Shown here in pieces: positions 1 to 41,094 of a DNA stretch of 54,349 bases. The position numbers and the translations under genes were made by a program. This stretch comes from an uncultured Gemmatimonadales bacterium (GTDB lineage Bacteria; Gemmatimonadota; Gemmatimonadetes; Gemmatimonadales; JACORV01). Every line of letters begins with the position of its first letter. The first letter of the stretch is position 1. The stretch spans positions 2,955 through 57,303 of the forward strand of contig CAYHQJ010000001.1 of NCBI GenBank assembly GCA_964358595.1. Direction: 5' to 3'. The notes under the pieces are model-generated. The model did no database searches and was not told where the DNA came from. It worked only from the letters and a program-made list of their open reading frames with translations.

Positions 1-95
1 GGGGGGGGGGCGGGGGCGCCCCGGGGGGGGGGGGCGGCACCCCCCGCGCCGGGGCGGGCGGCGCGCGCGGGCGCGGCCCGGGCGGCGGCGGCGGC
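1..95. other. G/C-only low-complexity tract at the window/contig edge, probably an assembly or read-end artefact
   Basis: Positions 1-95 contain a single A (pos 39) and no T, with long G runs. Ordinary coding-like sequence starts only after about pos 96, as the 3' end of an unidentifiable + strand ORF stopping at TAG 160-162. Confidence 0.5.
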
Positions 96-174
96 ATCGA
101 GTCCGGCCGACAAGCTTGCGGCCTGGCTGCTGCGCCAGGCGGACCTCAGCGACCTGGTGTAGGGGAGCAACGGG

Positions 175-1026
175 ATGCAGCTCGGGACGATCCTCGCCGC
201 AGTCACGACCCTCGGGGCGATCGGCCTGTTCTTCGCCGCGCTGATCGCGCTCGTGCACCGCCACTTCCACGTCTGGGTGGACCCACGCATCGAGGCCGTC
301 ACGGCGATGCTGCCCGGCTCGAACTGCGGCGCGTGCGGCTTCGCCGGGTGCGCCAACTTCGCGGAAGGGCTGATCGGGGGCGCGGCGCAGCCGGCCGGCT
401 GTACCCAGCTCAGCGAGGATGACAGCCAGAGCGTCGCCCTCTACCTCGGCGTGGCGGTGGGTGAGGCGAACCGCCGCGTGGCGCGCCTGCTGTGCGGCGG
501 TGGCTGCACCGCTGCGCCGCAGCAGGCCGAGTATCGCGGCCTGCAGACGTGCCGCGCCGCCACTGCCGTCGCCGGCGGGGGCAAGAGCTGCCGGTGGGGC
601 TGCCTCGGCCTCGCCGACTGCGCGGTGGCGTGCGACTACGACGCGATATTCATGAACGCCGAGGCGCTGCCGGTCGTCATCCCCGAGCGCTGCATCGCCT
701 GCGGCGACTGCGTCGAGGCGTGCCCGAAGGACCTGTTCGTGCTCATGCCGGCCGCGCAGAAGCTGATCGTGCAGTGCCGGAGCCCGCTGGAAGGCGCCCA
801 GGTCGAGGCGCTGTGCAGCGCCGCGTGCAACGCGTGCGGGAAGTGCGTGCTCGACGCGGCGCCGGGGCTGATCAGCATCGTGAACGGCCTCGCCGTGATC
901 GACTACGCGAACAACGAGCTCGCCGCGCCGGAGGCCACCACACGGTGTCCGACCGGCGCGATCGTCTGGGTCGAGGGCCGGCAGTTCGCCGCGCGCCCCA
1001 TCCCGGCACTGATGGAGGTGGCATGA
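175..1026 (+). CDS. rnfB: Rnf complex subunit B (polyferredoxin, ferredoxin-docking subunit)
   Basis: ORF-track ORF with an AGGGGAG SD-like element about 8 nt upstream. It has an N-terminal TM helix, the CGACGFAGC motif and several CxxCxxCxxxCP-type Fe-S motifs (CIACGDCVEACP, CNACGKCV), as in RnfB. Confidence 0.9.
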   Translation: MQLGTILAAVTTLGAIGLFFAALIALVHRHFHVWVDPRIEAVTAMLPGSNCGACGFAGCANFAEGLIGGAAQPAGCTQLSEDDSQSVALYLGVAVGEANRRVARLLCGGGCTAAPQQAEYRGLQTCRAATAVAGGGKSCRWGCLGLADCAVACDYDAIFMNAEALPVVIPERCIACGDCVEACPKDLFVLMPAAQKLIVQCRSPLEGAQVEALCSAACNACGKCVLDAAPGLISIVNGLAVIDYANNELAAPEATTRCPTGAIVWVEGRQFAARPIPALMEVA

Positions 1027-4000
1027 TGTTCCGCCGCAACGATTCGCCGAAGCCCGGCCCGGCGGTCAACGGGCCGAAGTATCCCGGCATCCCGACGGCC
1101 GTGGACGGCAGCACCGCCGTCGTCGAGATGGAGACCGCCGCGAGCGAGGGAGCGGGCGCGTATCCCATCACGCCGTCCACCCAGATGGGCGAGGGGTGGG
1201 CCGCCGCGGTGGCCGCCGGCACGCCGAACGTGCACGGCCGCAAGCTGATCTTCTTCGAGCCGGAGGGTGAGCACGCCGCCGCCGCGGTGACCGCCGGGAT
1301 GAGCATGTCGGGCCTGAGGGCCACGAACTTCTCGAGCGGCCAGGGCATCGCCTACATGCACGAGTCGCTGTACGCGGCCGTCGGCAAGCGGCTCACGTAC
1401 GTGCTGAACGTCGCCTGCCGCGCCATGACGAAACACGCGCTGAACGTCCACGCGGGCCACGACGACTATCACTGCGTGGACGACACCGGGTTCTTCCAGC
1501 TGTTCGCGAAGAACGTGCAGGAGTCGGCCGACCTCAACCTGATCGCCCATAGGGTCGCGGAGCTGTCGCTGAACCCGGGGCTCGTCGCGCAGGACGGCTT
1601 CCTCACCAGCCACGTGATCGAGTCGATCCGGCTCCCCGAGCGCGAGCTGGTGCGCGAGTACCTGGGAGCGCCCTCTGACGCCATCGACTCACCGACCCCG
1701 GCGCAGCGCATGGTGTTCGGCGAGCGCCGCCGCCGGATCCCCGAGATGTTCGACCTCGACTACCCGGCGATGCTCGGCGTCGTGCAGAACCAGGACAGCT
1801 ACGCCCAGGGTGTGGCGGCGCAGCGGCCGTTCTACTTCGACCACGTCGCCGACCTGACGGACCGGGCGTGCGACGAGTACGCCGCGCTCACCGGGCGGCG
1901 CTACGCGCGCGCGATGGGCTACCTGCTGGAGGACGCCGAGTGGGTGATCGTGGGACAGGGCTCGGTCGTGTGGAACGCCGAGGCGGTCGCGGACCACCTG
2001 CGCGCGACGCGGGGCCTGAAGGTCGGCGTGCTCAACGTGACGATGTTCCGGCCGTTCCCCACCGACCTCGTCACCCGGATGCTGCGCGGCAAGAAGGGCG
2101 TGACGGTGCTGGAGCGCACCGACCAGCCGCTCGCCGTGGACGCGCCGCTGCTGCGCGAGATCCGGGCGGCGATGGGCAAGGCGCTGGAGAACGGCCGTGC
2201 GGGCGAGCCGCTGCCCCACCCGGGTGTCGCCGCCTGCCGGCCGGAGGAGGTCCCCGACTTCTTCTCCGGCTGCTTCGGCCTGGGGAGTCGCGACCTCCAG
2301 CCCGGGCACCTCGTGGCGACCGTGGAGAACATGCTGCCGGGCGGGCGGCGCCGCCGCCAGTTCTACCTCGGCATCGACTTCATCCGCGCCGGCTCGCGCC
2401 TTCCGAAGCTCGAGATCTGGCAGCAGGAGTTGCAGGAGGCCTACCCGCACCTCGCGGAGCTCGCGCTCCCGCTCGCCGGCGACCTCAATTTGATGCCGGC
2501 GGGCTCGCTGTCGATCCGCATCCACTCGGTGGGCGGCTGGGGCGCGATCACGATGGGGAAGAACCTGGCGCTGACGGCCGCGGACCTGATGGGCCTCACC
2601 GTCCAGGCGAACCCGAAGTACGGGTCGGAGAAGAAGGGGCAGCCCACGACCTTCTACGCGACGCTGGCACGCGACCCGATCCGCACGAACTGCGAGCTCC
2701 GGCACGTAGACGTCGTGCTCTCGCCGGACCCGAACGTGTTCCGCCACTCGACCCCGCTGTCGGGGCTGCCCGAGCTCGGCGTGTTCGTGATCCAAAGCAG
2801 CCTCACGCCCGAGGGGCAGTGGGCCGCGCTCCCCGCGCCGGCCCAGCGGCGCATTCGCGAGCGGCGGCTGAAGGTCTGGATGCTCGACGCCTTCAAGATC
2901 GCGACCGAGGAGGCCACCGACCCCGAGCTGCGCTATCGCATGCAGGGCACCGCGTTCATGGGGGCGTTCTTCCGCGCGGCGCCGCTGCTGGGGCGCGAAG
3001 GGCTCGGCGAGGAGCAGCTGTTCGAGGGCATCCGCGCCCAGCTCACGAAGAAGTTCGGCCACCTCGGCGAGGCCGTGGTGGAGGCCAACGTGCGGGTGAT
3101 CCGCCGCGGCTACGACGAGGTCCGCGAGCTCGACTGGTCGCGGCTCGAGGAGTCCGCCGAGCTGGCCGCGGCCAACCCGGTGATGCCGGCGCTGCTCGAC
3201 GGCACGCGGGTACGGCCGGGGATCGGGAATCCCGGCCGGTTCTGGGAGCAGGTCTGCCACCTCTACAAGACCGGCCAGGACGGCATCGCCGACCCGTTCG
3301 CCGCGCTGAGCGCCATCCCAGCGGCGACGAGCACGATCCGCGACATGACCGACGTGCGCTTCGAGGTGCCGGCGTTCCTCGCCGCCAAGTGCACCGGGTG
3401 CGCGCGGTGCTGGACGCAGTGCCCCGACGCCGCCATCCCGGGCGTCGTCAGCGAGATCGACGCCGTCATCCAGGCGGCGCTGGCGCACGCGGCCACCGGC
3501 GGGCACACCGTCAACCGCCTCAAGCAGGTCGTGCCGCACCTGGCGCGCGAGAGCCGGCGCCTGATGACGGGCGCGCCGTTCACGACCTTCGGCGCGGTGC
3601 TGCGCACGGCGTACGGCAACGTCCTCGAGCAGCTGGGGCCCGATGCGGAGCGGCGCTCCGCCCTGGACGGGGAGTTCGCGCCCGTCGCCGCGGCGCTCGC
3701 GGAGTTCCCGCTCGCCAGGACCGGGCAGTTCTTCGACGTGCCCGAGAGCAAGGCGCCGGGCAGCGGCGGGCTCCTGTCCATCACGGTGAACCCAGAGGCC
3801 TGCAAGGGCTGCAACCTGTGCGTCGAGGTGTGCCCCGACGGCGCGCTGGTCACCGTGCGCCAGGACGCCGAGGTCCTCGAGCAGCTGCGCCGCAACTGGG
3901 CGCTGTGGCAGTACCTGCCGGAGACGCCCGACCGTTACGTCAACATCGCGAGCTATGAGGAGGGGATCGGCGTCCTGTCCTCGCTGCTCCTCAAGCAGTC

Positions 4001-6029
4001 CAACTACCGCTCGATGGTCGGCGGCGACGGCGCCTGCATGGGGTGCGGCGAGAAGACCGGCATCCACCTCGTCCTCTCGGCCGTCAACGCCCTGATGCTG
4101 CCGCGGGTGCGGAGGCACGTAGCGCAGCTCGACGACCTCGTCGCCAAACTGGACCACAAGGCCCGCGAGGTGCTCGCCGCCGACGCCGACCTCGACGCCG
4201 TGCACGGTGCGGCGGGGGCGCTCGCGATCCCGGTGGACGAGCAGACGCGCGAGCGCGTGGATCGCATCGCCCGGACGATCCACGACCTCAAGGACCTGAA
4301 GTGGCGCTACACGGAGGGTCCGAGCGGCAAGGGGCGGTCCACGCTCGGCATGGCGAACGCGACCGGCTGCTCGTCGGTGTGGGGGAGCACGTACCCGTTT
4401 AATCCATACCCGTTCCCCTGGGTCAACCACCTGTTCCAGGACGCGCCGTCGATCGCCATCGGCCTGTTCGAGGGGCACATGCGGAAGATGGCCGACGGCT
4501 TCGCCGCCGTGCGCCGCGCCGAGCTCGAGCTGGGCGACGGGTACGACCCGAAGCGGGACGAGGCCTTCTTTGCGCGGTTCGACTGGCACCAGTTCGGCGA
4601 CGACGAATTCGCGCTGTGTCCGCCGATCTTCGCGGTCGGCGGCGACGGCGCCATGATGGACATCGGGTTCCAGAACCTCTCGCGGCTCCTGGCGTCCGGA
4701 AAGCCGGTGCGGGTGATAGTGCTCGACACGCAGGTGTACTCCAACACCGGCGGCCAGGCGTGCACCAGCGGGTTCCTCGGCCAGGTGTCGGACATGGCCG
4801 CGTATGGGAAGGGCCAGCACGGCAAGGAGGAAGTGCGCAAGGAGCTGGCGCTCCTGGCCATCGCCCACCGCGGGGCGTACGTCCTCCAGGCGTCGCAGGC
4901 CTCCCCGTCGCACATGCTGGGCGGGGTGCTGCGCGCGCTGCAGTCGCGCCGGCCCGCGGTCATGGTGCTGCACTGCCCGTGCCCGCCGGAACACGGCATC
5001 GCGGACGAGGGCGCCGAGCGCGCGGCCCGGCTCGCGCTCGAGAGCCGCGCCTTCCCGGTGCTGGAGCACAACCCGGACGCGGGGGCGACGCTCGCCGAGC
5101 AGCTGAACCTCGACGGCAACCCCGCGCTCGACGATCCCTGGCCGTCCTACGAGCTGCGCTACCTGGACGAGTCGGGTGCCGAGCAGACGATGACGGTGCC
5201 GGTGACGACGGCCGACTGGGCGGCGACCGAGCTGCGCTTCCGCAAGCACTTCGTTCCCCTGCCGGACAACGCCGACGCCGACGACCTGGTGCCGTTCCAC
5301 GAGTTCCTGCTGTTGCCGCGCGAGGAGCGGGAGGGCAAGCGGCCGTTCATCTACACCATCGACGCGCAGCGCCGGCTGGCGCGGCTGGTCGCCTCGCCGG
5401 AAATCGTGGCGCTCGCCGAAGATCGGCTCGGCTTCTGGTCGCTGCTGCGCCAGATGAGCGGGCGCGAGCTGGCCGAGTCGGTCCGCGACGAGGTGGCGGA
5501 CGCCGCCGTCACGCCGGTCCGGGCCGAGTACGAAGCCAGGCTCGCCGACATCAAGGCGACGTATCCGCCGCGCATTGCGCGCCGCCTGGCCGAAGGGCTG
5601 ATCCGCGCCGGCAACGGCAAGCAGACCATCGCCGATCTTCTGGCGAAGGTGCAGGCGATGCCCGACCTTGTGGCCCTGGGACCGGAGGGCAGCGCGACGG
5701 CGGTTCCGGGCGCGCCCGCCGCGCCGGCGGCGGCGAAGGCCGCGGCGGCGCCGGCCGCGGCGGCCGCGGGGGTGGGCCTGGCGCTCGAGCCGTACATCGA
5801 CACCGAGCGCTGCACGAGCTGCGACGAGTGCACCAAGCTCAACGCCAAGATGTTCGCCTACAACGCGAAGAAACAGGCGTTCATCAAGGACCCGCGCGCG
5901 GGCACCTTCCGCGAGCTGGTGATAGCCGCCGAGCGGTGCACGGTCGGCATCATCCACCCGGGGACGCCGCTCAATCCCAAGGAAAAGGACCTGCCGAAGT
6001 GGACGAAGCGCGCGGAGCGCTTCGCGTGA
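1023..6029 (+). CDS. Pyruvate:ferredoxin (flavodoxin) oxidoreductase family protein, 1668 codons, with internal insertions and a C-terminal tethered ferredoxin-like domain
   Basis: An in-frame ATG at 1023 (MMFRRNDSPK...) forms an ATGA overlap with the rnfB stop. The part of ORF 492-6029 upstream of 1023 lies over rnfB in another frame. PFOR landmarks are YPITPSTQMGE, GGWGAITMGKNLA, two CxxCxxCxxxCP motifs, CMGCGEK, ANATGCSSVWG and GGDGAMMDIGFQNL...NTGGQ (TPP binding). The C-terminus has an Ala/Pro linker followed by CTSCDEC...C. Confidence 0.9.
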   Translation: MMFRRNDSPKPGPAVNGPKYPGIPTAVDGSTAVVEMETAASEGAGAYPITPSTQMGEGWAAAVAAGTPNVHGRKLIFFEPEGEHAAAAVTAGMSMSGLRATNFSSGQGIAYMHESLYAAVGKRLTYVLNVACRAMTKHALNVHAGHDDYHCVDDTGFFQLFAKNVQESADLNLIAHRVAELSLNPGLVAQDGFLTSHVIESIRLPERELVREYLGAPSDAIDSPTPAQRMVFGERRRRIPEMFDLDYPAMLGVVQNQDSYAQGVAAQRPFYFDHVADLTDRACDEYAALTGRRYARAMGYLLEDAEWVIVGQGSVVWNAEAVADHLRATRGLKVGVLNVTMFRPFPTDLVTRMLRGKKGVTVLERTDQPLAVDAPLLREIRAAMGKALENGRAGEPLPHPGVAACRPEEVPDFFSGCFGLGSRDLQPGHLVATVENMLPGGRRRRQFYLGIDFIRAGSRLPKLEIWQQELQEAYPHLAELALPLAGDLNLMPAGSLSIRIHSVGGWGAITMGKNLALTAADLMGLTVQANPKYGSEKKGQPTTFYATLARDPIRTNCELRHVDVVLSPDPNVFRHSTPLSGLPELGVFVIQSSLTPEGQWAALPAPAQRRIRERRLKVWMLDAFKIATEEATDPELRYRMQGTAFMGAFFRAAPLLGREGLGEEQLFEGIRAQLTKKFGHLGEAVVEANVRVIRRGYDEVRELDWSRLEESAELAAANPVMPALLDGTRVRPGIGNPGRFWEQVCHLYKTGQDGIADPFAALSAIPAATSTIRDMTDVRFEVPAFLAAKCTGCARCWTQCPDAAIPGVVSEIDAVIQAALAHAATGGHTVNRLKQVVPHLARESRRLMTGAPFTTFGAVLRTAYGNVLEQLGPDAERRSALDGEFAPVAAALAEFPLARTGQFFDVPESKAPGSGGLLSITVNPEACKGCNLCVEVCPDGALVTVRQDAEVLEQLRRNWALWQYLPETPDRYVNIASYEEGIGVLSSLLLKQSNYRSMVGGDGACMGCGEKTGIHLVLSAVNALMLPRVRRHVAQLDDLVAKLDHKAREVLAADADLDAVHGAAGALAIPVDEQTRERVDRIARTIHDLKDLKWRYTEGPSGKGRSTLGMANATGCSSVWGSTYPFNPYPFPWVNHLFQDAPSIAIGLFEGHMRKMADGFAAVRRAELELGDGYDPKRDEAFFARFDWHQFGDDEFALCPPIFAVGGDGAMMDIGFQNLSRLLASGKPVRVIVLDTQVYSNTGGQACTSGFLGQVSDMAAYGKGQHGKEEVRKELALLAIAHRGAYVLQASQASPSHMLGGVLRALQSRRPAVMVLHCPCPPEHGIADEGAERAARLALESRAFPVLEHNPDAGATLAEQLNLDGNPALDDPWPSYELRYLDESGAEQTMTVPVTTADWAATELRFRKHFVPLPDNADADDLVPFHEFLLLPREEREGKRPFIYTIDAQRRLARLVASPEIVALAEDRLGFWSLLRQMSGRELAESVRDEVADAAVTPVRAEYEARLADIKATYPPRIARRLAEGLIRAGNGKQTIADLLAKVQAMPDLVALGPEGSATAVPGAPAAPAAAKAAAAPAAAAAGVGLALEPYIDTERCTSCDECTKLNAKMFAYNAKKQAFIKDPRAGTFRELVIAAERCTVGIIHPGTPLNPKEKDLPKWTKRAERFA

Positions 6030-6036
6030 CGCCGCG

Positions 6037-7359
6037 GTGAAACTCGCCACGTTCCGCCACGGCGTGCACCCGCCCGAGCTGAAGGAGCTGACGGCGCGCT
6101 CGCCGATCCGCCGGCTGCCGTTTCCGGCCGAGGTGGTGCTCCCGCTGCGGCAGCACACCGGCAATCCGGCCCGCCCCCTCGTGCGGCCCGGCGACCGCGT
6201 CGAGCGCGGCGACAAGATCGCGGAGGCCGACGGCTGGGTCTCCTCGCCGGTGCACGCTTCGGCCACCGGGACGGTCACAGCCATCGGTCTGTGGCCGCAC
6301 CCGGACGGCACCTACGAGCCGGCCATCCGGATCGCGGTGGAGCCGTTCTCGGCGCAGGCCGCGCGGCCCAGGATGGTGCCGGACTGGCACGGACTCGCGC
6401 CGAAGCAGATCGTCGAAGCCATACGGGATGCCGGGGTGGTCGGGCTCGGGGGCGCCGCGTTTCCCACGCACGTCAAGCTCTCGCCGCCTGATGAGCAGAA
6501 GGTCGACGTGCTGGTGATCAACGGTTGTGAATGTGAGCCGTACCTCACGACCGATCACCGGAGCATGGTGGAATACCCGGAGCGCGTCCACCTCGGCATC
6601 CGCATGATCATGCACTGCCTCGGCGTCGCGCGCGGCATGATCGGGATCGAGCGCAACAAGCCCGACGCGATCGCCGCACTCAGCGCCACGCTGCCCTCCG
6701 ACCTCGCGGTGACCGTGCACCCGCTGACCGTGAAGTACCCGCAGGGCGCCGAGAAAATGCTGATCCACGCCCTGCTCGGCCGCGAGGTGCCATCGGGCAA
6801 GCTGCCGATGCACGTCGGCGCCGTGGTGCACAACGTCGCGTCGGCCCAGACCATCGGCGAGGTCTTCGACACCGGCCTGCCGCTCATCGAGCGGATCGTG
6901 ACGCTCACCGGTCACGGCGTGCGCCGGCCCTCGAACCTCATCGTCCCGGTGGGCACCAAGATCCGCGACCTGATCGACGCTTGCGGCGGCCTCACGGAGG
7001 ACGCCCGCGAGATCGTCTTCGGCGGGCCGATGATGGGCGTCGCGCAGCCGGACCTCGACACGCCCGTCGTGAAGGGCGTGACCGGCGTCGTGGTCCTCAC
7101 CGAGGCCGACTGCAAGCCGCTGGCGTCCTACCCGTGCATCAAGTGCGGGCATTGCCTCGACGCCTGCCCGGTGTTCCTCAACCCGCAGCGGCTCGGCGCC
7201 CTCGCGCTGGCCGAGCGCTACGACGAGGCGGCGGCGAACCACCTGGCCGACTGCATGCTGTGCGGCTGCTGCGGCTACGTCTGTCCGTCCAACGTGCCGC
7301 TGCCGCAGCTGTTCAAGCTCGCCAAGTCCGAGCTCAAGCGCCGGAGCGCCGCCGCGTGA
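6037..7359 (+). CDS. rnfC: Rnf complex subunit C
   Basis: GTG start 7 nt after the PFOR stop. Motifs are the GLGGAAFPT nucleotide/FMN motif and two 4Fe-4S motifs (CIKCGHCLDACP, CMLCGCCGYVCP), a typical RnfC layout. Confidence 0.92.
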   Translation: MKLATFRHGVHPPELKELTARSPIRRLPFPAEVVLPLRQHTGNPARPLVRPGDRVERGDKIAEADGWVSSPVHASATGTVTAIGLWPHPDGTYEPAIRIAVEPFSAQAARPRMVPDWHGLAPKQIVEAIRDAGVVGLGGAAFPTHVKLSPPDEQKVDVLVINGCECEPYLTTDHRSMVEYPERVHLGIRMIMHCLGVARGMIGIERNKPDAIAALSATLPSDLAVTVHPLTVKYPQGAEKMLIHALLGREVPSGKLPMHVGAVVHNVASAQTIGEVFDTGLPLIERIVTLTGHGVRRPSNLIVPVGTKIRDLIDACGGLTEDAREIVFGGPMMGVAQPDLDTPVVKGVTGVVVLTEADCKPLASYPCIKCGHCLDACPVFLNPQRLGALALAERYDEAAANHLADCMLCGCCGYVCPSNVPLPQLFKLAKSELKRRSAAA

Positions 7360-8360
7360 CTCGCCCGCCGTTCCTGGTGACGGCGGCGCCGCACCTTTCC
7401 TCCGCGGACAGCACCCCCCGAATCATGTGGACCGTGGTCGGCGCCCTGGCGCCGATCGTCGTTGCCGCCACCTGGTTCTTCGGCGTGAGCGCGCTGCTGG
7501 TCATCCTGGCGAGCGCCGCGGGCGCCCTCGCCACCGAACGGACGCTCGGGCGCGGCGGCACCCTGCGCGACGGCTCAGCGACGATCACCGGCGTCCTGCT
7601 CGGCCTGACGCTGCCGGCCGGCCTCCCGATGTGGATGGCCTTCGTGGGCGGCGCGTTCGCGATCGGGTTCGGCAAGCTGATCTTCGGCGGCCTCGGCCAG
7701 AACGTGTTCAACCCGGCGCTGCTGGGACGCGCGTTCCTCCAGGCGGCCTTCCCCACCCCGCTCACCACATGGCCCGTCCCCGGCGGGTCCTGGTGGGCGT
7801 TGCGCGGCGACAACTTCGCCCTGCCGCTGATGAGCGCGCGGCCGCTGGACGCCGTCACCGGCGCGACGCCGCTCGGGCTCATGAAGTTCGAGCACCAGGC
7901 CACCGACGTGGTCCCGCTCATGGTCGGCTCCACCGGCGGCTCCCTCGGCGAGACGGCCGGGCTGCTGATCCTGGCGTGCGGCGCCTACCTCGCCGTGCGC
8001 AGCTACCTGAACTGGCGGATCCCGGCGAGCATCCTGCTGACCGTCGCCGCGTTTTCCGAGGGCCTGCACCTGCTCGGTCCCGCCCGGTTCGCCGGCCCGC
8101 TGTTCATGCTCTTCTCGGGCGGCCTCATGCTCGGCGCCGTGTTCATGGCGACCGACATGGTCACGTCGCCCGTGACCCAACGGGGCTGCTGGATCTTCGG
8201 GATCGGGATCGGCATCCTGGTGGTCGTCATCCGCGTGTGGGGAGGACTCCCGGAGGGCGTGATGTACGCCATCCTGCTGATGAACGCGCTCGTGCCGTTC
8301 ATCAATCGCGCCACCCAGCCGCGCGTCTTCGGGACGCGCACCGCCCCGGCGTCCGCGTGA
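7356..8360 (+). CDS. rnfD: Rnf complex subunit D (NqrB/RnfD family membrane protein)
   Basis: In-frame GTG at 7356 overlaps the rnfC stop (GTGA). The protein is polytopic and contains a TGATPLG flavinylation-type motif. The upstream part of ORF 6981-8360 overlies rnfC. Confidence 0.88.
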   Translation: MTRPPFLVTAAPHLSSADSTPRIMWTVVGALAPIVVAATWFFGVSALLVILASAAGALATERTLGRGGTLRDGSATITGVLLGLTLPAGLPMWMAFVGGAFAIGFGKLIFGGLGQNVFNPALLGRAFLQAAFPTPLTTWPVPGGSWWALRGDNFALPLMSARPLDAVTGATPLGLMKFEHQATDVVPLMVGSTGGSLGETAGLLILACGAYLAVRSYLNWRIPASILLTVAAFSEGLHLLGPARFAGPLFMLFSGGLMLGAVFMATDMVTSPVTQRGCWIFGIGIGILVVVIRVWGGLPEGVMYAILLMNALVPFINRATQPRVFGTRTAPASA

Positions 8361-9016
8361 GCACTCCGCCCGCCGCCGAGCACGCCCCGCCGCGGGTGCC
8401 GGCCGCCCGGCTCCTGACGACGCTGGGAACCGGCGGCGCGCTCGCCGGCGCGCTGCTCGTCTTCGCGTACCAGGCCACGCAGCCCACCATCCTCGCCAAC
8501 AAGCGGAAGGAGCTGGCGCAGGCGATCGCGGAGGTGCTCAGGGCGCCGCAGCGCTACGACACGCTCTACGTGTACCGGAACGCGCTCCGGCGCGAGCTGC
8601 CGCCCGGCGTGGACCCGCGCGGCCTGGAGCGCGTCTATCTGGGCTACGGAGCGAACGGCGAGCGGATCGGCTTCGCCGTCGAATCGAACGCGGCCGGCTT
8701 CCAGGACCGCATCGGCCTTATCTTCGGCTACGAAAGCGCCACCGGCCGGCTGCTGGGAATGAAGGTGCTCCAGAGCACCGAGACGCCCGGGCTGGGCGAC
8801 AAGATCTACAAGGACACGGCGTTCGTCGGGCAGTTCAGCCGGGTCGCCGTGCCCCTCCACGGCGTCAAGCGCGGCGCCGGCCGGGGTGACAGCGCCGCGG
8901 TGGACATGATCACCGGCGCCACCATCTCCTCGCGCGCCGTGATCCGCGCGATCAACGACGCACTGGCGCGGCTGCGCCCGCTGCTCGACGGTTACCGGGC
9001 CGAGGCATCGCGATGA
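8357..9016 (+). CDS. rnfG: Rnf complex subunit G (FMN_bind domain)
   Basis: In-frame GTG at 8357 overlaps the rnfD stop (GTGA). It has an N-terminal TM anchor and the ITGATISS covalent-FMN motif. Confidence 0.88.
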   Translation: MSTPPAAEHAPPRVPAARLLTTLGTGGALAGALLVFAYQATQPTILANKRKELAQAIAEVLRAPQRYDTLYVYRNALRRELPPGVDPRGLERVYLGYGANGERIGFAVESNAAGFQDRIGLIFGYESATGRLLGMKVLQSTETPGLGDKIYKDTAFVGQFSRVAVPLHGVKRGAGRGDSAAVDMITGATISSRAVIRAINDALARLRPLLDGYRAEASR

Positions 9017-9669
9017 AAGCGTCGCGGCCCGCCGACGACTTCCTGCGCTGCATCTGGCAGGAGAACCCGGTGCTGGTCCAGGTGCTGGGCCTGTGCCCCA
9101 CCCTCGCCGTCACCAACACGGTCGCCAACGCCGTGGCGATGAGCATCGCGGTGGCTTTCGTGCTCGTGTTCTCGAGCCTGATCGTGTCCTCGCTCAAGCG
9201 GTTCATCCCGAACGAGGTGCGGATCTCGGCGTACATCATGATCATCGCCACGTTCGTGAGCATCGCCGACATGACGCTCCAAGCCACCCAGCCGGTCATC
9301 CACAAGGCGATGGGCCCGTTCGTCCCGCTGATCGTGGTGAACTGCATCATCCTCGCCCGCCAGGAGGCCTTCGCCGCGCGCAACCCCGTCTGGCGCTCGG
9401 TGCTCGACGCCGCGGGCAACAGCGTCGGGTTCACGATCGCCCTCCTGATCATGGGCAGCGTCCGCGAGGTCCTCGGGAGCGGCACGTTCCTCGGGACCAG
9501 CGTCTTCGGCCCGCACTACGAACCGTGGGTGATAATGATCCTCCCGCCGGGCGGGTTCTTCACGCTGGGCTCGCTCGTGCTGGCCGTGAACGTCATCCGC
9601 CGCCGGCGCGTGGCGCGCGCCGGGGTCCCGGCGCTCCCGGTGCGGTCCGAGACGAAGGAAGCGGCCTGA
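9013..9669 (+). CDS. rnfE: Rnf complex subunit E (NqrD/RnfE family)
   Basis: The ORF-track start ATG 9013 overlaps the rnfG stop (ATGA). It carries the VLGLCPTLAVT motif and is polytopic. Confidence 0.92.
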   Translation: MKASRPADDFLRCIWQENPVLVQVLGLCPTLAVTNTVANAVAMSIAVAFVLVFSSLIVSSLKRFIPNEVRISAYIMIIATFVSIADMTLQATQPVIHKAMGPFVPLIVVNCIILARQEAFAARNPVWRSVLDAAGNSVGFTIALLIMGSVREVLGSGTFLGTSVFGPHYEPWVIMILPPGGFFTLGSLVLAVNVIRRRRVARAGVPALPVRSETKEAA

Positions 9670-10247
9670 TGGGCGACCTGTTCTGGATCCTGTTCTCGAC
9701 GATGGTGGTGAACAACTTCACCCTCGCGCTGTTCCTCGGGCTGTGCCCGTTCATGGGCGTGTCGAACCGGGTGGATACCGCGCTGCGCATGGGCGCCGCC
9801 AACATTTTCGTCATGACGCTCACGTCGGTCGCCGTGTGGGCGCTCAACACCTTCGTGCTGGCGCACGCGCCCTACCTGCGGCTGATCGCCTTCATCGTCG
9901 TCATCGCCTCGCTGGTGCAGATCGTGGAGATGGTGATCAAGAAGGTGAGCCCCGCGCTGTTCCGCGCGCTCGGCATCTACCTGCCGCTCATCACGACCAA
10001 CTGCGCCATCCTCGGCCTCGCGATCTTCCAGACGACCCGCGGCTACGGCCTCCTCCAGGGACTGTTCTTCGCCATCGGCGGCGGGCTCGGCCTGCTGCTC
10101 GCGCTGGTCCTGATGGCGTCGATCCGGGAGGCCCTCGAGACCGCCGACCTGCCCGACGTGGTCAAGGGCACCGCCCTCGTGCTCCTCATCTCGGGCAGCC
10201 TGTCGCTGGCGTTCATGGGATTCGCCGGCCTGCTGAGTGCCTCGTGA
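9669..10247 (+). CDS. rnfA: Rnf complex subunit A (NqrE/RnfA family)
   Basis: ATG 9669 shares its A with the rnfE TGA (TGATG). Motifs are MGDLFWILFS..., LGLCPFMGVS and TTNCAILG. Confidence 0.9.
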   Translation: MGDLFWILFSTMVVNNFTLALFLGLCPFMGVSNRVDTALRMGAANIFVMTLTSVAVWALNTFVLAHAPYLRLIAFIVVIASLVQIVEMVIKKVSPALFRALGIYLPLITTNCAILGLAIFQTTRGYGLLQGLFFAIGGGLGLLLALVLMASIREALETADLPDVVKGTALVLLISGSLSLAFMGFAGLLSAS

Positions 10248-10423
10248 GGCTGGTCGCCGGTATGCTTGCGGCCGCGGCGCTGTTCGTCGCCGCCGGATAT
10301 GTGGTTTCCAGGAGACGCCGGTCCGCCGCGTGCGACACCTGCCCCGCGGCCGAATCCTGCGACACCGGCGAGCCCCCGTGCCCCGCCGAGGACGAAACGG
10401 AGTCGAGCCATGCACATCGCTGA
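10244..10423 (+). CDS. Small single-TM, four-Cys membrane peptide (NqrM-like / FeoB-associated Cys-rich architecture), 59 codons
   Basis: GTG 10244 overlaps the rnfA stop (GTGA), and the 3' end overlaps the apbE start by 14 nt. The translation is VRLVAGMLAAAALFVAAGYVVSRRRRSAACDTCPAAESCDTGEPPCPAEDETESSHAHR, giving a TM helix, a basic anchor and C-x2-C-x6-C-x6-C. Confidence 0.55.
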   Translation: MRLVAGMLAAAALFVAAGYVVSRRRRSAACDTCPAAESCDTGEPPCPAEDETESSHAHR

Positions 10424-11405
10424 CGTGCCGCGCACACCGACCACCCGTCGCGGCTTCATCGCCCTTGGCGTCGGGGCCCTCGCCGTGGCGGCCGTGCCCG
10501 TCCTCGGGCGCGCTCGGCTGCGCCTGTGGCGCCGCACGCTCCCGGTGATGGGCACCCTGGCCGAGATCGCCGTCGAGGAGCGCGACCCGCGGCGCGCCCA
10601 GGCCGCGCTCGATGCCGCGTTCACCGAGCTGGTGGCCGTCGAGCGCGCGATGACGCGGTTCGACGCTGCCTCCGAGGTGGGTCGCGTGAACCTCGGAGCG
10701 GCGGCCGAGGCCGTCCCGGTGAGCGCGCCGACCGCCGCCGTGATCGGCGCGGCGCTGGCGTGGGCCGAGGCCAGCGACGGCGCGTTCGACCCCGGCCTCG
10801 CGCGGGTCGCGCAGCTGTGGGACGTCACGCACCGGCGCTTGCCGCCACCCGCCCGCGACGTGCGCCACTTCGCGGGACGCCGGCTCTACCGCGCGCTGGA
10901 CCTCGACACCTGGCGCGGACGGCCGGCGGTGCGGCTCACCGATCCGGACGTGGCGATCGACCTCGGCGGGATCGCCAAGGGCTACGGCGCGGACCGCGCC
11001 GCGGACGCGCTGCGCGCGCGCGGAATCCGCCGGGCACTCGTGAACGTCGGCGGCGAACTGTACGCCATTGGCGACTCCCCCGAAGGCGACCCGTGGCGCA
11101 TCGGCATCCAGTCACCGTTCGAGCCGGAGCGGATGATGGGGGAGATGACGGTGAGCGACGGCGCGGTCGCCACGTCGGGCGACTACCTCCAGTACTTCGA
11201 GTACCGCGGCGTGCGCTACCACCACCTGCTGGACCCGATGACGGCCGCCCCGCGCGTGTGCCACATGCACAGCATCACCGTCGTCGCGGCCACCGGCATG
11301 CAGGCGGACGCGGCGACCACGGCGCTCTTCGGCATGCCTCCCGCGGCCGCTGCGGGCGTGCTCCAGGTGGTGGCGCCCGGCGCCAGGGTGGAGCGCCGGA
11401 TCTAG
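10410..11405 (+). CDS. apbE: FAD:protein FMN transferase ApbE, with a Tat-type signal peptide
   Basis: An internal ATG (MHIADVPRTPTTRRGFIALGVGALAVAA) gives a twin-arginine leader. DLGGIAKGY and ATSGDY are ApbE motifs. It lies downstream of its flavinylation substrates RnfG and RnfD. Confidence 0.88.
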   Translation: MHIADVPRTPTTRRGFIALGVGALAVAAVPVLGRARLRLWRRTLPVMGTLAEIAVEERDPRRAQAALDAAFTELVAVERAMTRFDAASEVGRVNLGAAAEAVPVSAPTAAVIGAALAWAEASDGAFDPGLARVAQLWDVTHRRLPPPARDVRHFAGRRLYRALDLDTWRGRPAVRLTDPDVAIDLGGIAKGYGADRAADALRARGIRRALVNVGGELYAIGDSPEGDPWRIGIQSPFEPERMMGEMTVSDGAVATSGDYLQYFEYRGVRYHHLLDPMTAAPRVCHMHSITVVAATGMQADAATTALFGMPPAAAAGVLQVVAPGARVERRI

Positions 11406-11457
11406 CGGGCGCTTGCTCCGTCCGGGGTGGGGGCTCCCCGCCGGGCGCGCCGGCGCC

Positions 11458-11486
11458 TTGACGCCCGCGCGCCCGCCTCCATATAT
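11458..11486 (+). promoter_or_regulatory. Putative sigma70-type promoter for the TonB-dependent receptor gene
   Basis: TTGACG (11458-11463), a 17-nt spacer and ATATAT (11481-11486), about 40 nt upstream of ATG 11529, which is preceded by GGAGG. Confidence 0.4.
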
Positions 11487-11528
11487 GGGGGCACGGTTCC
11501 GCCCCACCAAAGCTCCCCTGGAGGCTCC

Positions 11529-14342
11529 ATGCGACGTGCCGCCGGCTTCCTCACGTGCACCTTGATCCTGCTCCTTCTGCCCGTGCGGGCACTCCATGCC
11601 CAGCGCGGCGTAGTGCGCGGCCACATCGCGGACTCGGCGGGCACCGCGCTCCCCCACGCCCAGTTGTCGCTCGGAGGCATCCGCCTCACGGTGACCAGCA
11701 GCGACCAGGGCGACTACCAGATCCGCAGCGTGGCACCCGGCACCTACACGCTGCGCGTCAGGCTGCTGGGGTACTCCCCGCAGAGCGCCCGCATCACCGT
11801 CACGGCAGGCGGCACGGTGCAGCAGGACTTCATCATGGTCAGCCAGCCGATCGGCCTCTCGGCCATCGACGTGGTCGTTGGCTCCCGGGCGCCGCACACT
11901 GCCGCCGCGGAACTGGCAGTGCCGGTGGACGTCTACGTCGCCGAAGACCTCGCGCGCCAGGGTACCAGCGAGACGAGTCAGATCCTGGCGACGCTCACAC
12001 CCTCGGTGAATTTCCCGCGCCAGAGCGTCACGGATGCCACCGACATCGTCCGGCCGTTCACGTTGCGCGGCTTGAGCCCCGACCACACCCTGGTACTCGT
12101 GAACGGGTGGCGGCGGCACCAAACCGCCGTGGTCAATACCTTCGCCTACGGCACGAACGCCGGCTCGAGCGGCGTGGACCTCAACGCGATCCCGGCGAGC
12201 GCCCTCGAGCGGGTCGAGGTGCTCCGCGACGGCGCCTCCGCCCAGTACGGCTCCGATGCGATCGCTGGGGTTGTCAACCTCGTCATGAAGGAAGGAGCGT
12301 TCGCCCCGTTCGTGAATGTCGAAGCCGGACGCTACGCCGTCCCGGGCTACCCAGACGACGGGAGGACCATCGACGTGAACGGCGGCTGGGGCTTCGGGCT
12401 GGGGCGAGGCTCGCTTACACTGTTCGCTGAGGTCCTCGACCGCCAGCCGACCAATCGCGCGTGGGCCGACCCCTACGAGGACGCCGGCACGGGGCTGACC
12501 GACTCGGTCAACAGCCGGGGGCAGGTCGTCGTCAAGAACAACCCGGTCCCGCAGCCCAACCACCACTGGGGCGACGGGCTGGAGCGGGACATCATGACGA
12601 TGGCCAACCTCCGGCTGCCGCTCAACGACGCGCGCACCAGCGAGGTGTACGCGTTCGGCGGCTACAGCTTCCGGCGGGGGACGGGGAACGGGTATCGGCG
12701 CTACGCGGGCAACTACCGGAACTGGCCGGAGATCTACCCGCTGGGCTTTCTGCCCGAGTTCAACCCGGACGCAACGGACTACTCGCTCGCCGGCGGGTAT
12801 CGGGGCGCCACCCAAGGGTGGTCATTCGACGTCGGCGCCTCGTTCGGGCGCAACGATTTCGACTACAACCTTCGCAACACCCTCAACGCGTCGCTGGGGC
12901 CGTGTGTCGCTCCCGCTGCGCCGTGCGCGCCGGGCTCCGACGGCGTCCTCGGGAACGTGGACGATCCGGGGATCCCCAATCAGACGTCCTTCTTCGCGGG
13001 TCAGCTCAGACGGGACGAGCTCATTGCGGCGATCAACGCGGCCAAGAGGCTGGATCTGGGGCTTGCCTCCCCCGTGAACCTCGCGGTCGGCGCCGCGTTC
13101 CGGCGGGAGTCGTACCGGATTACCCAGGGGGAGCGCGCCTCGTGGATCGACGGCGGGCACCTGGCCCAGGACTCGAGCGACGCGCCCGGCGGCTCACAGG
13201 TGTTCCAGGGCTTCGCCCCGTCGGACGAAGCGGACCAGAGCCGCACCAACGTGTCCGCCTACGTCGATCTCGAGACCGATCTGAGCCCCCGGCTTCTGGG
13301 CAACCTGGCGGGACGATTCGAGCGCTACAGCGACTTCGGCTCGCTGGTCACCGGCAAGCTGGCGTTCCGGTACCAGGCCTCGCCGCGGCTCACGCTGCGG
13401 GCCGCCGGGAGCACGGGCTTCCGTGCGCCAGGACTGGGGCAGATCAACTTCAGCAAGGTGGTCACCAACGTGATCGCCGGCGTGTTCGAGGAGATCGGGA
13501 TCTTCCCCGTGGAGGACTCGGCTGCACGCCTCCTCGGGGCCAGGCCGCTCCAGGAAGAGACCTCGGTGAACTTCAGCGCGGGGTTCGCGTTCAGTCCGCG
13601 GGACAATCTTACGTTCACGGCCGACTACTTCCATGTCAAGATCAACGACCGGATCCTGCTCGGCGCGACGTTCGACGACGACACGACCAGAGCGATCCTC
13701 ACGCGCGGCGGCTTCACCGAGATCGCCGGGGTCCAGTACTTCACGAACGGGCTCGATACCCGAACGCAGGGCGTTGACGTCACGGGCAGCTTCCGGACAC
13801 CCGCGGGGGCCGGCATGCTCGACCTGACGGGCTCGGTCAACTACACCTCGAACGAGATTACCGGGTACGATCCGCTTCCCGCAGTGCTCCGGAACGCGGA
13901 CCAGGAAACCGGGCTCATCGATAGTGTCACGTACATCGGGATCACGGAGGAGCGCCCCGACTGGCGCGCCACCATGACCGCGCAGTACTCAGCGGGCCGG
14001 CTCCGCGGGCTCGCGCGGGCCTCCTACTTCGGCAAGTTCTCCTCGGCGCAGCCGGGCTACTGCGACCGGTGCCGGGAGCGGTACGGGGCCAAGACGCTGT
14101 TCGACGCCGAAGTGGGCTACCGCCTCAGCCTGGTGGACCTGGCGGTCGGAGTTCGCAACATCTTCAATACGTATCCGGACCAGCCGTCGTCCACGACTCC
14201 CACCGACAAGGATGATCCGAGCTCGGACCCCGCCATGCTGTACAACAACAACTATGGCACGTTCCCCTGGGCGGCGGCCTCGCCGTTTGGGTACAACGGG
14301 CGATACGTCTACGTGCGGGCCTCGATACCGTTGAGTCGCTAG
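11529..14342 (+). CDS. TonB-dependent outer-membrane receptor with an N-terminal carboxypeptidase-regulatory-like domain
   Basis: ATG 11529 follows a GGAGG SD. The signal peptide ends in ...ALHAQ. The CarboxypepD_reg-like segment is GHIADSAG...YTLRVRLLGY. A plug region (TLRGLSPDHTLVLVNGWRR, RVEVLRDGASAQYGSDAIAGVVN) is followed by a long beta-barrel. Confidence 0.9.
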   Translation: MRRAAGFLTCTLILLLLPVRALHAQRGVVRGHIADSAGTALPHAQLSLGGIRLTVTSSDQGDYQIRSVAPGTYTLRVRLLGYSPQSARITVTAGGTVQQDFIMVSQPIGLSAIDVVVGSRAPHTAAAELAVPVDVYVAEDLARQGTSETSQILATLTPSVNFPRQSVTDATDIVRPFTLRGLSPDHTLVLVNGWRRHQTAVVNTFAYGTNAGSSGVDLNAIPASALERVEVLRDGASAQYGSDAIAGVVNLVMKEGAFAPFVNVEAGRYAVPGYPDDGRTIDVNGGWGFGLGRGSLTLFAEVLDRQPTNRAWADPYEDAGTGLTDSVNSRGQVVVKNNPVPQPNHHWGDGLERDIMTMANLRLPLNDARTSEVYAFGGYSFRRGTGNGYRRYAGNYRNWPEIYPLGFLPEFNPDATDYSLAGGYRGATQGWSFDVGASFGRNDFDYNLRNTLNASLGPCVAPAAPCAPGSDGVLGNVDDPGIPNQTSFFAGQLRRDELIAAINAAKRLDLGLASPVNLAVGAAFRRESYRITQGERASWIDGGHLAQDSSDAPGGSQVFQGFAPSDEADQSRTNVSAYVDLETDLSPRLLGNLAGRFERYSDFGSLVTGKLAFRYQASPRLTLRAAGSTGFRAPGLGQINFSKVVTNVIAGVFEEIGIFPVEDSAARLLGARPLQEETSVNFSAGFAFSPRDNLTFTADYFHVKINDRILLGATFDDDTTRAILTRGGFTEIAGVQYFTNGLDTRTQGVDVTGSFRTPAGAGMLDLTGSVNYTSNEITGYDPLPAVLRNADQETGLIDSVTYIGITEERPDWRATMTAQYSAGRLRGLARASYFGKFSSAQPGYCDRCRERYGAKTLFDAEVGYRLSLVDLAVGVRNIFNTYPDQPSSTTPTDKDDPSSDPAMLYNNNYGTFPWAAASPFGYNGRYVYVRASIPLSR

Positions 14343-38496: not shown

Positions 38497-38509
38497 AGGT
38501 GTTCTCCCG

Positions 38510-39229
38510 CTAGCGCGCAGTGGGTACCGCGCGGATTCGCTTGCGCGCGTCGGCGCGGAACGGACCCGCCAGCTCGCAGGCGTGGCACGGGTCAAGGAAG
38601 CACATCGCGTTGTCGTAGCTCTGCAAGCACACAGTCGCGAAATTGACACAGCCGTTGCACAGCGTGGTATCCGCCGCCGCGCCCTGGCAGCGCAGCTCGC
38701 ACACGGGACAGATGTAGAGACACGCGCCGCACTGGCGGCACAGCTCGCTGGTCATGTCGAACGGCCGGGCGACGCGTCGGTTGAGGCCCCGGCCGGCGAA
38801 GCCGATGGCGCCCGCCATCATCTGCTCGGCACACATCCGCACGCACAGCCCGCACTGGATGCAGGTCTCGTGTTTCGGCTCGTACCGGCACTGCCGCACG
38901 CCGGCGGCCGAGGCCAGGTCCTGGATCCGCTTGGACTGGGGCGAGGTCGCGACGTACAGCTCGAGCAGCAGCCGGCGGGCACGCTCCACGCGGGCGGAGT
39001 GCGTCCAGACCGTCAGCCCGTCTTCTGCCGGACAGGTGCACGACGCCTGGAGGCTCCTCCCGTTCCCGCGGGAGACCTCCACGAGGCAGAGACGGCAGGC
39101 TCCGTACGGCGTGAGCCCTTCGTCGTGACAGAGGGTGGGGATCGGTATGCCGTAGAGGCGCGCAACGTCCAGCACGCTGCTGCCACGCTCGACCTCAACC
39201 TCGGTCCCGTTGATCGTCAGCTTCGGCAC
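38510..39229 (-). CDS. NuoG/HydA-N-terminal-like Fe-S protein ([2Fe-2S] plus [4Fe-4S] clusters, with no catalytic domain)
   Basis: MPKLTINGTEVEVE...TLCHDEGLTPYGACRLCLVEV is a plant-type 2Fe-2S fold as in NuoG. CIQCGLCVRMC and CRQCGACLYICP follow, with extra C-terminal Cys residues. Confidence 0.85.
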   Translation of the reverse strand: MPKLTINGTEVEVERGSSVLDVARLYGIPIPTLCHDEGLTPYGACRLCLVEVSRGNGRSLQASCTCPAEDGLTVWTHSARVERARRLLLELYVATSPQSKRIQDLASAAGVRQCRYEPKHETCIQCGLCVRMCAEQMMAGAIGFAGRGLNRRVARPFDMTSELCRQCGACLYICPVCELRCQGAAADTTLCNGCVNFATVCLQSYDNAMCFLDPCHACELAGPFRADARKRIRAVPTAR

Positions 39230-39239
39230 GGGAGACTCC

Positions 39240-41093: not shown

Positions 41094-41094
41094 G

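Follow-up and report, generated by a model that had tools for sequence, protein, structure and literature searches.

A widespread rnf operon type with an internal gene for a 2-oxoacid:ferredoxin oxidoreductase that carries a predicted tethered ferredoxin

The rnf gene cluster and its internal oxidoreductase gene

The window analysed here is a 54,349-nt stretch of DNA (GC content approximately 71%) on contig CAYHQJ010000001.1 of an uncultured Gemmatimonadales bacterium. Its main object is a gene cluster at the 5′ end, in which the genes for Rnf, the ion-translocating ferredoxin:NAD+ oxidoreductase, are found together with a gene for a single-chain enzyme of the pyruvate:ferredoxin oxidoreductase (PFOR) type. 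By listing of open reading frames (ORFs), direct reading, and profile scans with Pfam and NCBIfam, nine consecutive genes were assigned to the + strand at 175-11405 (Table 1), and these genes and all eight of their junctions lie at the positions given in a preliminary description of the same DNA. rnfB and the PFOR gene overlap by ATGA (1023-1026), and a 7-nt spacer (6030-6036) separates the latter from rnfC. The junctions rnfC/rnfD (7356-7359), rnfD/rnfG (8357-8360), and rnfA/small ORF (10244-10247) are GTGA, while rnfG/rnfE is ATGA (9013-9016), rnfE/rnfA is TGATG (9667-9671), and the small ORF and apbE overlap by 14 nt (10410-10423). A consensus scan of nt 1-12000 detected neither promoters nor terminators (0.3 and 3.0 were expected from shuffles). 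This agrees with the earlier claim that none lies inside the cluster, but it is weak evidence and is given little weight because the DNA is 71% GC.

The window contains genes for all six Rnf subunits (RnfA, B, C, D, E, and G) in one cluster, in a non-canonical order; a B-first order is broken by the 5-kb gene between rnfB and rnfC. RnfB reaches 67.6 bits against its curated TIGR model, marginally below the cut-off of 68.7, and both RnfB and RnfA have a clear Pfam match. The flavinylation motif TGAT is found at residues 168-171 of RnfD and, as D-x-I-TGAT, at residues 186-189 of RnfG, and the ApbE domain (PF02424) is near full length, covering profile positions 1-256 of 266. With these motifs and an ApbE carrying a twin-arginine translocation (Tat)-type signal, the gene set is consistent with a working Rnf, and, as established for such systems, the Tat-exported ApbE would flavinylate RnfD and RnfG. 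The small ORF between rnfA and apbE is regarded as a real gene, because an ORF of the same build occupies this place in 38 of 39 related loci and because its counterpart in the sister-type loci described below is a called gene of 52-54 aa. No NCBIfam family matches it. It has the same build as PF12669 (FeoB_associated), although the similarity is sub-threshold, with best scores of 11-15 bits against a cut-off of 27 (E 0.035-0.43) for 4 of the 6 members tested.

Table 1. Features of the window and of related loci (positions in the window unless a locus is named)
Feature	Position	Strand	Description	Evidence
rnfB	175-1026	+	N-terminal membrane helix, PF04060 Fe-S domain, several 4Fe-4S motifs; long polyferredoxin-type RnfB	Pfam, NCBIfam
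PFOR-type 2-oxoacid:ferredoxin oxidoreductase	1023-6029	+	Single chain, 1668 aa	Pfam; alignment to 6CIN, 1B0P
PFOR ferredoxin-like domain V	3390-3836	+	Two 4Fe-4S motifs (CTGCARCWTQCP, CKGCNLCVEVCP) with a ~110-residue insertion between them	Pfam; alignment to 6CIN
PFOR proximal-cluster and ThDP/Mg motifs	4029-4757	+	Cys motifs GACMGCGEK and ANATGCSSVWG; ThDP/Mg motif GGDG...YSNTGGQ; ~90-residue insertion	Alignment
PFOR family-specific tail domain	5082-5651	+	Residues 1354-1543 (~190)	Foldseek, cluster search, AlphaFold2
PFOR flexible linker	5652-5786	+	Residues 1544-1588; 20 Ala, 6 Pro, and 5 Gly of 45	Composition, entropy, pLDDT
PFOR tethered ferredoxin domain (predicted)	5787-6026	+	Single-cluster type, ~80 residues, CxxCxxC...C	Pfam Fer4_13 (residues 1592-1645)
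rnfC	6037-7359	+	NADH/FMN-binding subunit with two 4Fe-4S	TIGR01945 520 bits (cut-off 246); Pfam
rnfD	7356-8360	+		TIGR01946 313 bits (cut-off 207)
rnfG	8357-9016	+	FMN_bind domain	TIGR01947 109 bits (cut-off 102)
rnfE	9013-9669	+		TIGR01948 222 bits (cut-off 213)
rnfA	9669-10247	+		TIGR01943 227.2 bits (just below cut-off 229.3); Pfam Rnf-Nqr 186 bits
Small Cys-rich ORF	10244-10423	+	59 aa; one transmembrane helix, then Cys-rich tail	Conserved between rnfA and apbE
apbE	10410-11405	+	FAD:protein FMN transferase; twin-arginine-type signal TRRGFIALG	Pfam ApbE 247 bits
G/C-only low-complexity stretch	1-96	.	Poly-G runs; contig-end or sequencing artefact, or degraded disordered-linker part of gene X	Direct reading
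3′ end of gene X	97-162	+	...SSPADKLAAWLLRQADLSDLV, stop TAG 160-162	Matches C-terminal helix of X family
Sister operons	L082 10001-18266; L083 10001-18072; L085 10001-18906; L086 10001-17323			
Hemerythrin/rubrerythrin-like genes	L082 6155-6586; L085 6541-6963, 23246-23731; L086 6625-7086			
Partial locus L081	CP070792.1, 7197-15614		Complete Gemmatimonadota genome	
Locus L084	4565-12586		korA-korB-Y, then defence/mobile genes	
TonB-dependent receptor gene	11427-14342		With CarboxypepD_reg	
Three adjacent genes	36916-41598	-	Glu_synthase-domain protein (576 aa), NuoF-like protein (628 aa), 167-aa ORF	

The PFOR protein and its tethered ferredoxin

The gene between rnfB and rnfC encodes domains I, II, III, V, and VI of PFOR in one chain, with the thiamine diphosphate (ThDP)/Mg motif and ligands for three [4Fe-4S] clusters; its Pfam domains are POR_N, PFOR_II, POR, two Fer4, TPP_enzyme_C, and Fer4_13. 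In alignments with the structures 6CIN and 1B0P, the protein keeps the Thr of YPITPST, the substrate Arg, GACMGCGE, ANATGCSS, CPC, the eight Cys residues of domain V, and GGDG...YSNTGGQ, and the corresponding columns show at least 90% conservation in the close family (at least 68% identity). Judged by its motifs, the window PFOR is catalytically intact. Positions contacting the substrate in the Desulfovibrio africanus PFOR are also kept, namely Thr (YPITPST), Arg (ACRA), and Asn (YSNTGGQ). We infer pyruvate as the substrate only from these three positions, and they are common to several specificities of 2-oxoacid:ferredoxin oxidoreductases (OFORs). Beyond the common core, the protein has two insertions, at residues ~806-915 and ~1019-1110, and ~315 extra residues at its C-terminus.

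This C-terminal extension consists of a family-specific tail domain, a linker rich in Ala and Pro, and a small ferredoxin domain (Table 1). When the model of the PFOR C-terminus was compared with the PDB by Foldseek, only the end of domain VI was matched, and the tail has no recognisable fold there. The linker is hypervariable in both sequence and length among homologues, with a column entropy of 2.1-2.3 bits as against 0.5-0.7 in the flanking ferredoxin domain, and within the 395 C-terminal residues analysed few parts are as well conserved as the latter. In an AlphaFold2 model of residues 1274-1668, the predicted local distance difference test score (pLDDT) falls below 50 only at 1552-1599, between two folded parts. 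Because the Fer4_13 domain follows a hypervariable, disordered Ala/Pro linker, composition, conservation, and structure prediction together show PFOR as a protein with a tethered ferredoxin, predicted to be covalently attached via the flexible linker. Neither a flavodoxin nor an FAD-binding domain was found in the PFOR C-terminus with Pfam. When the C-terminal 315 residues were compared with 1.84 billion cluster representatives, 497 clusters (50% identity) were obtained at E <= 1e-30, and many of the proteins in them are ~800-870 aa long and annotated only as 'ferredoxin.'

Conservation of the gene order in relatives

GTDB species representatives (one genome per species) were scanned with the window PFOR, the 80 best of at least 585 relatives were fetched, and the operon proteins were located in these 80 loci by tblastn. 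All 80 are metagenome-assembled genomes (MAGs), and inspection covered these closest 80 genome loci and five loci of a sister type. As far as the contigs reach, 78 of the 80 loci have rnfB-PFOR-rnfCDGEA-(small ORF)-apbE in the order of the window; the other two (L055 and L061) are local rearrangements. The junctions are similarly tight, with medians of -3 nt for rnfB/PFOR and 17 nt for PFOR/rnfC. The loci are mostly labelled as Gemmatimonadota MAGs, but labels of Rokubacteria, Planctomycetota, Acidobacteriota, and Delta- and Gammaproteobacteria also occur (six or more phyla), the same order being found in three gammaproteobacterial loci (L071, L076, and L077). Some of the loci labelled outside Gemmatimonadota sit on contigs of 0.7-4 Mb.

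These data bear on whether the PFOR gene was joined into the rnf operon merely by misassembly. The poly-G junk at the start of the window, which indicates a poor contig end, could be taken as a sign of such a chimera. The same junctions, however, recur in 78 of the 80 independently assembled loci, including those on Mb-scale contigs, and a chimeric assembly is therefore excluded for all practical purposes. The rarity of the gene order implied in the preliminary description did not hold up either, as relatives of the PFOR occur in at least 585 species representatives, inspection of the 80 best confirmed the order, and a printed mention of it dates from 2014. The layout is common, neither rare nor exceptional. 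The preliminary description had also considered that it might prove both common and already characterised in relatives; it is the former but not the latter.

Upstream genes korA, korB, and X

The operon does not begin with rnfB. In related loci, korA, korB, and a gene referred to here as X lie directly 5′ of rnfB on the + strand (59-63 of the 80 loci, depending on the gene); X precedes rnfB in 62, and most of the others are cut by a contig end. The complete order from korA to apbE is seen in 31 loci, and the other colinear loci end at contig ends. Because nt 97-162 of the window encode the C-terminus of X, and because korA-korB precede X in related loci, the window truncates the operon. It holds only the last 21 codons of X, korA and korB are wholly outside, and ~3 kb of the operon is missing upstream; an exact-sequence look-up of the window PFOR, which might have led to this part, returned no record. 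On this comparison, the full operon has 12 genes, korA-korB-X-rnfB-PFOR::Fd-rnfC-rnfD-rnfG-rnfE-rnfA-(small Cys-rich membrane protein)-apbE, where PFOR::Fd denotes the PFOR with its ferredoxin, and its last 11.4 kb is in the window. The earlier claim of a single unit thus stands insofar as the genes are tightly packed and evolutionarily conserved, but its delimitation was wrong, since korA-korB-X lie upstream and are cut by the window edge.

In the related loci, korA encodes a KorA with fused gamma and alpha parts (532 bits against TIGR03710, cut-off 483), and korB encodes a protein that has four Cys residues and in which the ThDP motif is intact. X is a conserved operon protein of ~334 aa without a sequence match in Pfam, NCBIfam, or the PDB. 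Its AlphaFold2 model has a pLDDT of 83; Foldseek returned nothing for this model at E <= 0.001, and the weak top matches are ThDP enzymes. BLAST and hhalign found only weak similarity between X and PFOR residues 1153-1369. X is tentatively regarded as a degenerate relative of a ThDP-binding domain. It ends with a near-invariant amphipathic helix (DKLAAWLLxQADLSD), and in the X protein P0121 residues 298-334 form a disordered stretch (pLDDT <50) followed by this helix, which may serve as a docking peptide.

A sister operon type with dead PFOR homologues

A second operon type has been found, in which the order (hemerythrin)-korA-korB-Y-rnfB-Z-rnfCDGEA-small ORF holds in four of the five contexts examined (L082, L083, L085, and L086). 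The small ORF is followed by apbE in L086, by the locus edge in L082 and L083, and by a rubrerythrin-like gene in L085. Y, at the position of X, is a degenerate PFOR-beta-like protein of 795-1258 aa with the tail and a tethered ferredoxin. One such protein, P0267, from the clusters found with the PFOR C-terminus, aligns with PFOR residues 1155-1668 at 36% identity and has a degenerate ThDP motif. Z, between rnfB and rnfC, is a PFOR homologue of 1357-1546 aa with 33% identity to the window PFOR (one pair, L083). It has no ferredoxin tail, and the substrate, ThDP, and proximal-cluster motifs are absent in all four loci. Nevertheless, both domain-V [4Fe-4S] motifs are kept in three of the four.

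Because the slot between rnfB and rnfC is kept by a catalytically dead homologue, a structural, electron-wiring role of the PFOR-family protein is suggested. Comparison of the two operon types argues that position matters more than catalysis and that the tethered ferredoxin moves between operon proteins. The dead homologues are the strongest support, if indirect, for PFOR-family proteins as parts of an Rnf assembly that serve in its structure and in electron transfer, beyond mere co-expression.

Three of the sister-type loci have a hemerythrin gene directly 5′ of korA, and one has a rubrerythrin-like gene downstream (Table 1). No hemerythrin gene was found upstream of korA at L006 or L076, both of the operon type of the window. 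These neighbours hint at a link to oxygen sensing or protection. In the fifth context, L084, the genes after korA-korB-Y are of the defence and mobile type (ORF6N, GmrSD, and PIN), and rnfD and rnfG are located upstream on the opposite strand, by genes of a type VI secretion system; it looks like a disrupted copy of the operon.

Proposed mechanism and rival explanations

We consider it probable that this operon type encodes an Rnf ion-translocating ferredoxin:NAD+ oxidoreductase with hard-wired 2-oxoacid oxidoreductases, namely one of the KorAB type and the single-chain PFOR. The tethered ferredoxin would shuttle electrons between the clusters of the oxidoreductases (PFOR and probably KorAB) and RnfB, replacing a freely diffusing ferredoxin, and the PFOR-family protein from the rnfB/rnfC slot would be a physical part of the membrane complex. 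In the forward direction, oxidation of 2-oxoacids (pyruvate, and probably 2-oxoglutarate via KorAB) would reduce NAD+ and export ions. In the backward direction, acyl-CoAs would be reductively carboxylated at the expense of NADH and the ion gradient. The net reaction would be 2-oxoacid + CoA + NAD+ to acyl-CoA + CO2 + NADH with ion export, or its reverse; the sequence fits either direction. As a speculation, hard-wiring might have been favoured in mostly aerobic phyla by preventing the loss of low-potential electrons to O2. A hard-wired path from PFOR via ferredoxin to Rnf, possibly with docking, had been proposed in the preliminary description; the tethered ferredoxin and the dead homologues kept in the slot speak for it, but they do not extend to the direction of the path or to pyruvate as its substrate.

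A more specific reading goes further. PFOR-family proteins may be stoichiometric subunits of a distinct Rnf subtype, in which a swinging-arm [4Fe-4S] ferredoxin links the KorAB and PFOR sites to RnfB. The product would be a membrane-bound, ion-pumping 2-oxoacid:NAD+ oxidoreductase supercomplex (in reverse, a gradient-driven pyruvate/2-oxoglutarate synthase), and it would occur widely among aerobic phyla of soil and sediment (Gemmatimonadota, Planctomycetota, Rokubacteria, and Acidobacteriota). This reading is tentative; on present evidence we regard it as possible, somewhat short of probable.

Several points weigh against such a physical and functional union. First, the support for a complex, for cotranscription, and for activity is all comparative or sequence-based, and selection for co-expression alone can conserve gene order. 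Second, the locus L081 in a complete Gemmatimonadota genome (CP070792.1) contains korB-X-rnfB-PFOR but neither korA nor rnfDGEA, and its rnfC is truncated to 184 aa; PFOR may therefore persist without an adjacent Rnf, unless this is an artefact of assembly or decay. Third, the window PFOR reaches 387 bits against the TIGR02176 equivalog, for which the cut-off is 911, and no match to the EKR domain IV (PF10371) was detected in it at E <= 0.001, the HMMER alignment of this region to 6CIN being loose; its substrate is therefore uncertain. Fourth, the taxonomic labels of MAGs, on which the distribution depends, can be wrong.

The first two of these points lead to the explanation that the operon reflects co-expression only. 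PFOR::Fd would then be soluble, its ferredoxin domain would meet RnfB by diffusion, and the gene order would provide balanced co-expression without any stable supercomplex. Indeed, enzymes of one pathway are often encoded in one operon without forming a complex, no membrane anchor or known docking motif was detected in PFOR or X, and L081 has rnfB-PFOR without rnfDGEA. On the other hand, PFOR homologues that are dead have been kept exactly between rnfB and rnfC, which is hard to explain if only the enzymatic product mattered, and the insertion lies inside the rnf gene set, not at its edge, and is invariant in 78 of the 80 loci. We therefore regard co-expression alone as rather unlikely, though deserving serious consideration. 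The third point, the low TIGR02176 score together with the missing EKR match, could suggest with the dead homologues in the same operon position that the window PFOR too is no working pyruvate enzyme, and only an Fe-S scaffold or electron conduit for KorAB. Unlike the sister type, however, it possesses every catalytic, ThDP, and cluster-ligand motif that was checked, each at least 90% conserved in the close family, and this makes a scaffold-only role very improbable.

If the machinery is hard-wired as proposed, it could also operate in reverse, which is a rival as to direction, not identity. NADH and the ion gradient would reduce the tethered ferredoxin via Rnf, and the reduced ferredoxin would serve a pyruvate/2-oxoglutarate synthase, with which aerobic or microaerobic bacteria would carry out anaplerosis, assimilate acetyl-CoA, or fix CO2. 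It is established that Rnf-type complexes in aerobes and diazotrophs (Azotobacter, Rhodobacter, and E. coli Rsx) work uphill and that OFOR reactions are reversible. The operon unites both ferredoxin-dependent carboxylating enzyme types of the reductive tricarboxylic acid (rTCA) cycle, it occurs in chemoautotrophic symbionts, and hemerythrin or rubrerythrin genes flank some sister-type operons. Conversely, most carriers are labelled as heterotrophic phyla, the window contains no ATP-citrate lyase or other rTCA marker, and under sulfide limitation, expression of the KorAB(3) and PFOR-like genes of the Riftia symbiont fell while that of its rTCA cluster rose (PMC11636981). The usual uphill work of Rnf in aerobes and the fact that both enzymes are those of reductive carboxylation speak for the reverse reading, but we would call reverse operation quite conceivable rather than probable.

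The significance of the arrangement follows from a contrast with the usual view, in which Rnf and PFOR are textbook partners thought to communicate via freely diffusing ferredoxin, mainly in anaerobes. The operon type described here is widespread, for the most part in phyla considered to be aerobic heterotrophs, in which one would not normally look for energy conservation via ferredoxin, and dead copies of the enzyme apparently remain as scaffolds. The dehydrogenase complexes for pyruvate and 2-oxoglutarate leave unused the ~180 mV that separate the 2-oxoacid couple from NAD+. If correct, the proposal would provide an energy-conserving alternative or counterpart to these complexes or, in reverse, a means by which NADH and the membrane gradient drive the assimilation of CO2 and acetyl-CoA. 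Structural work on how Rnf accepts electrons would also gain a ferredoxin-RnfB pair that is locked by nature. Furthermore, metabolic reconstructions of MAG-rich phyla would change, since the genes concerned are now annotated separately as 'PFOR,' 'ferredoxin,' 'hypothetical,' and 'Rnf.'

Other genes in the window

The rest of the window has no bearing on this finding and is occupied by housekeeping genes, including those for a TonB-dependent receptor, Dus, GuaA, ProRS, PBP2, MreB, PNPase, RseP, PyrH, EF-Ts, and S2. The TonB-dependent receptor gene lies directly 3′ of apbE and does not accompany the operon in related loci. Three adjacent genes on the - strand (Table 1) may specify an NADH-linked iron-sulfur flavoenzyme; the NuoF-like protein among them has Complex1_51K, NADH_4Fe-4S, thioredoxin-like 2Fe-2S, and Fer4 domains.

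Comparison with known systems

The component families are known, while the integrated architecture is uncharacterised and its gene order has already been printed once. In the gill symbiont of Solemya velum, PFOR genes were described as 'located between rnfB2 and rnfC2' of an rnfBCDGEA-type operon, and pyruvate was suggested as the donor (Dmytrenko et al., 2014, BMC Genomics 15:924; PMC4287430). By this description the architecture of rnf2 is the same, and its PFOR may belong to the same long family. The account is a single annotation sentence and does not include the tethered ferredoxin, korAB-X, the phylogenetic breadth, the dead paralogues, or experiments. In the Riftia symbiont, adjacent genes for KorA(3), KorB(3), and a 'PFOR-like ferredoxin' show parallel changes in expression, which fell where that of the rTCA genes rose (PMC11636981). 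A search of open-access papers and preprints returned nothing on the fused ferredoxin, upstream genes, dead paralogues, distribution, or biochemistry of this layout, and a paper on the evolution of Nqr and Rnf does not mention a PFOR within rnf.

With the characterised Rnf complexes of Acetobacterium woodii, Clostridium tetanomorphum, Azotobacter vinelandii (Rnf1), and Rhodobacter capsulatus, the window shares the six subunits RnfA-E and G, the NADH/FMN module of RnfC, the flavinylation motifs of RnfD and RnfG, a polyferredoxin RnfB, and an ApbE encoded alongside. It differs from them in the 5-kb OFOR gene between rnfB and rnfC and in the covalently tethered ferredoxin predicted here. To our knowledge, the electron partner of known Rnf complexes is a ferredoxin or flavodoxin that diffuses freely, and no oxidoreductase gene interrupts their operons (rnfCDGEAB, rnfABCDGE(H), and rnfBCDGEA).

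The PFORs of D. africanus (1B0P) and Moorella thermoacetica (6CIN) have the domain order I-II-III-V-VI, the ThDP motif, the three [4Fe-4S] clusters, and the substrate Thr, Arg, and Asn in common with the window PFOR. The latter is ~450-500 residues longer, owing to the two insertions, the ~190-residue tail, the linker, and the extra ferredoxin domain, and no EKR domain was detected in it. A precedent for a fused acceptor is found in pyruvate:NADP+ oxidoreductase (PNO) of Euglena and Cryptosporidium, a PFOR with a C-terminal acceptor module that is a flavoprotein resembling NADPH-cytochrome P450 reductase. The window PFOR instead has a small [4Fe-4S] ferredoxin on a linker, and the NAD-reducing ion pump, Rnf, is separate. 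The lipoyl swinging arms in E2 of the 2-oxoacid dehydrogenases are likewise small carrier domains that visit several active sites on a flexible, Ala/Pro-rich linker. The resemblance is one of analogy only, as sequence and cofactor are unrelated, and electrons would be carried on an Fe-S cluster in place of acyl groups on lipoamide. Finally, we know of no description of KorAB embedded in an rnf operon beside PFOR-derived accessory proteins. The korA and korB genes of the related loci do correspond to two-subunit KorAB-type OFORs (TIGR03710), such as Mycobacterium tuberculosis KOR and the Sulfolobus OFOR, in that their products pass or approach the models and keep the ThDP and Cys motifs.

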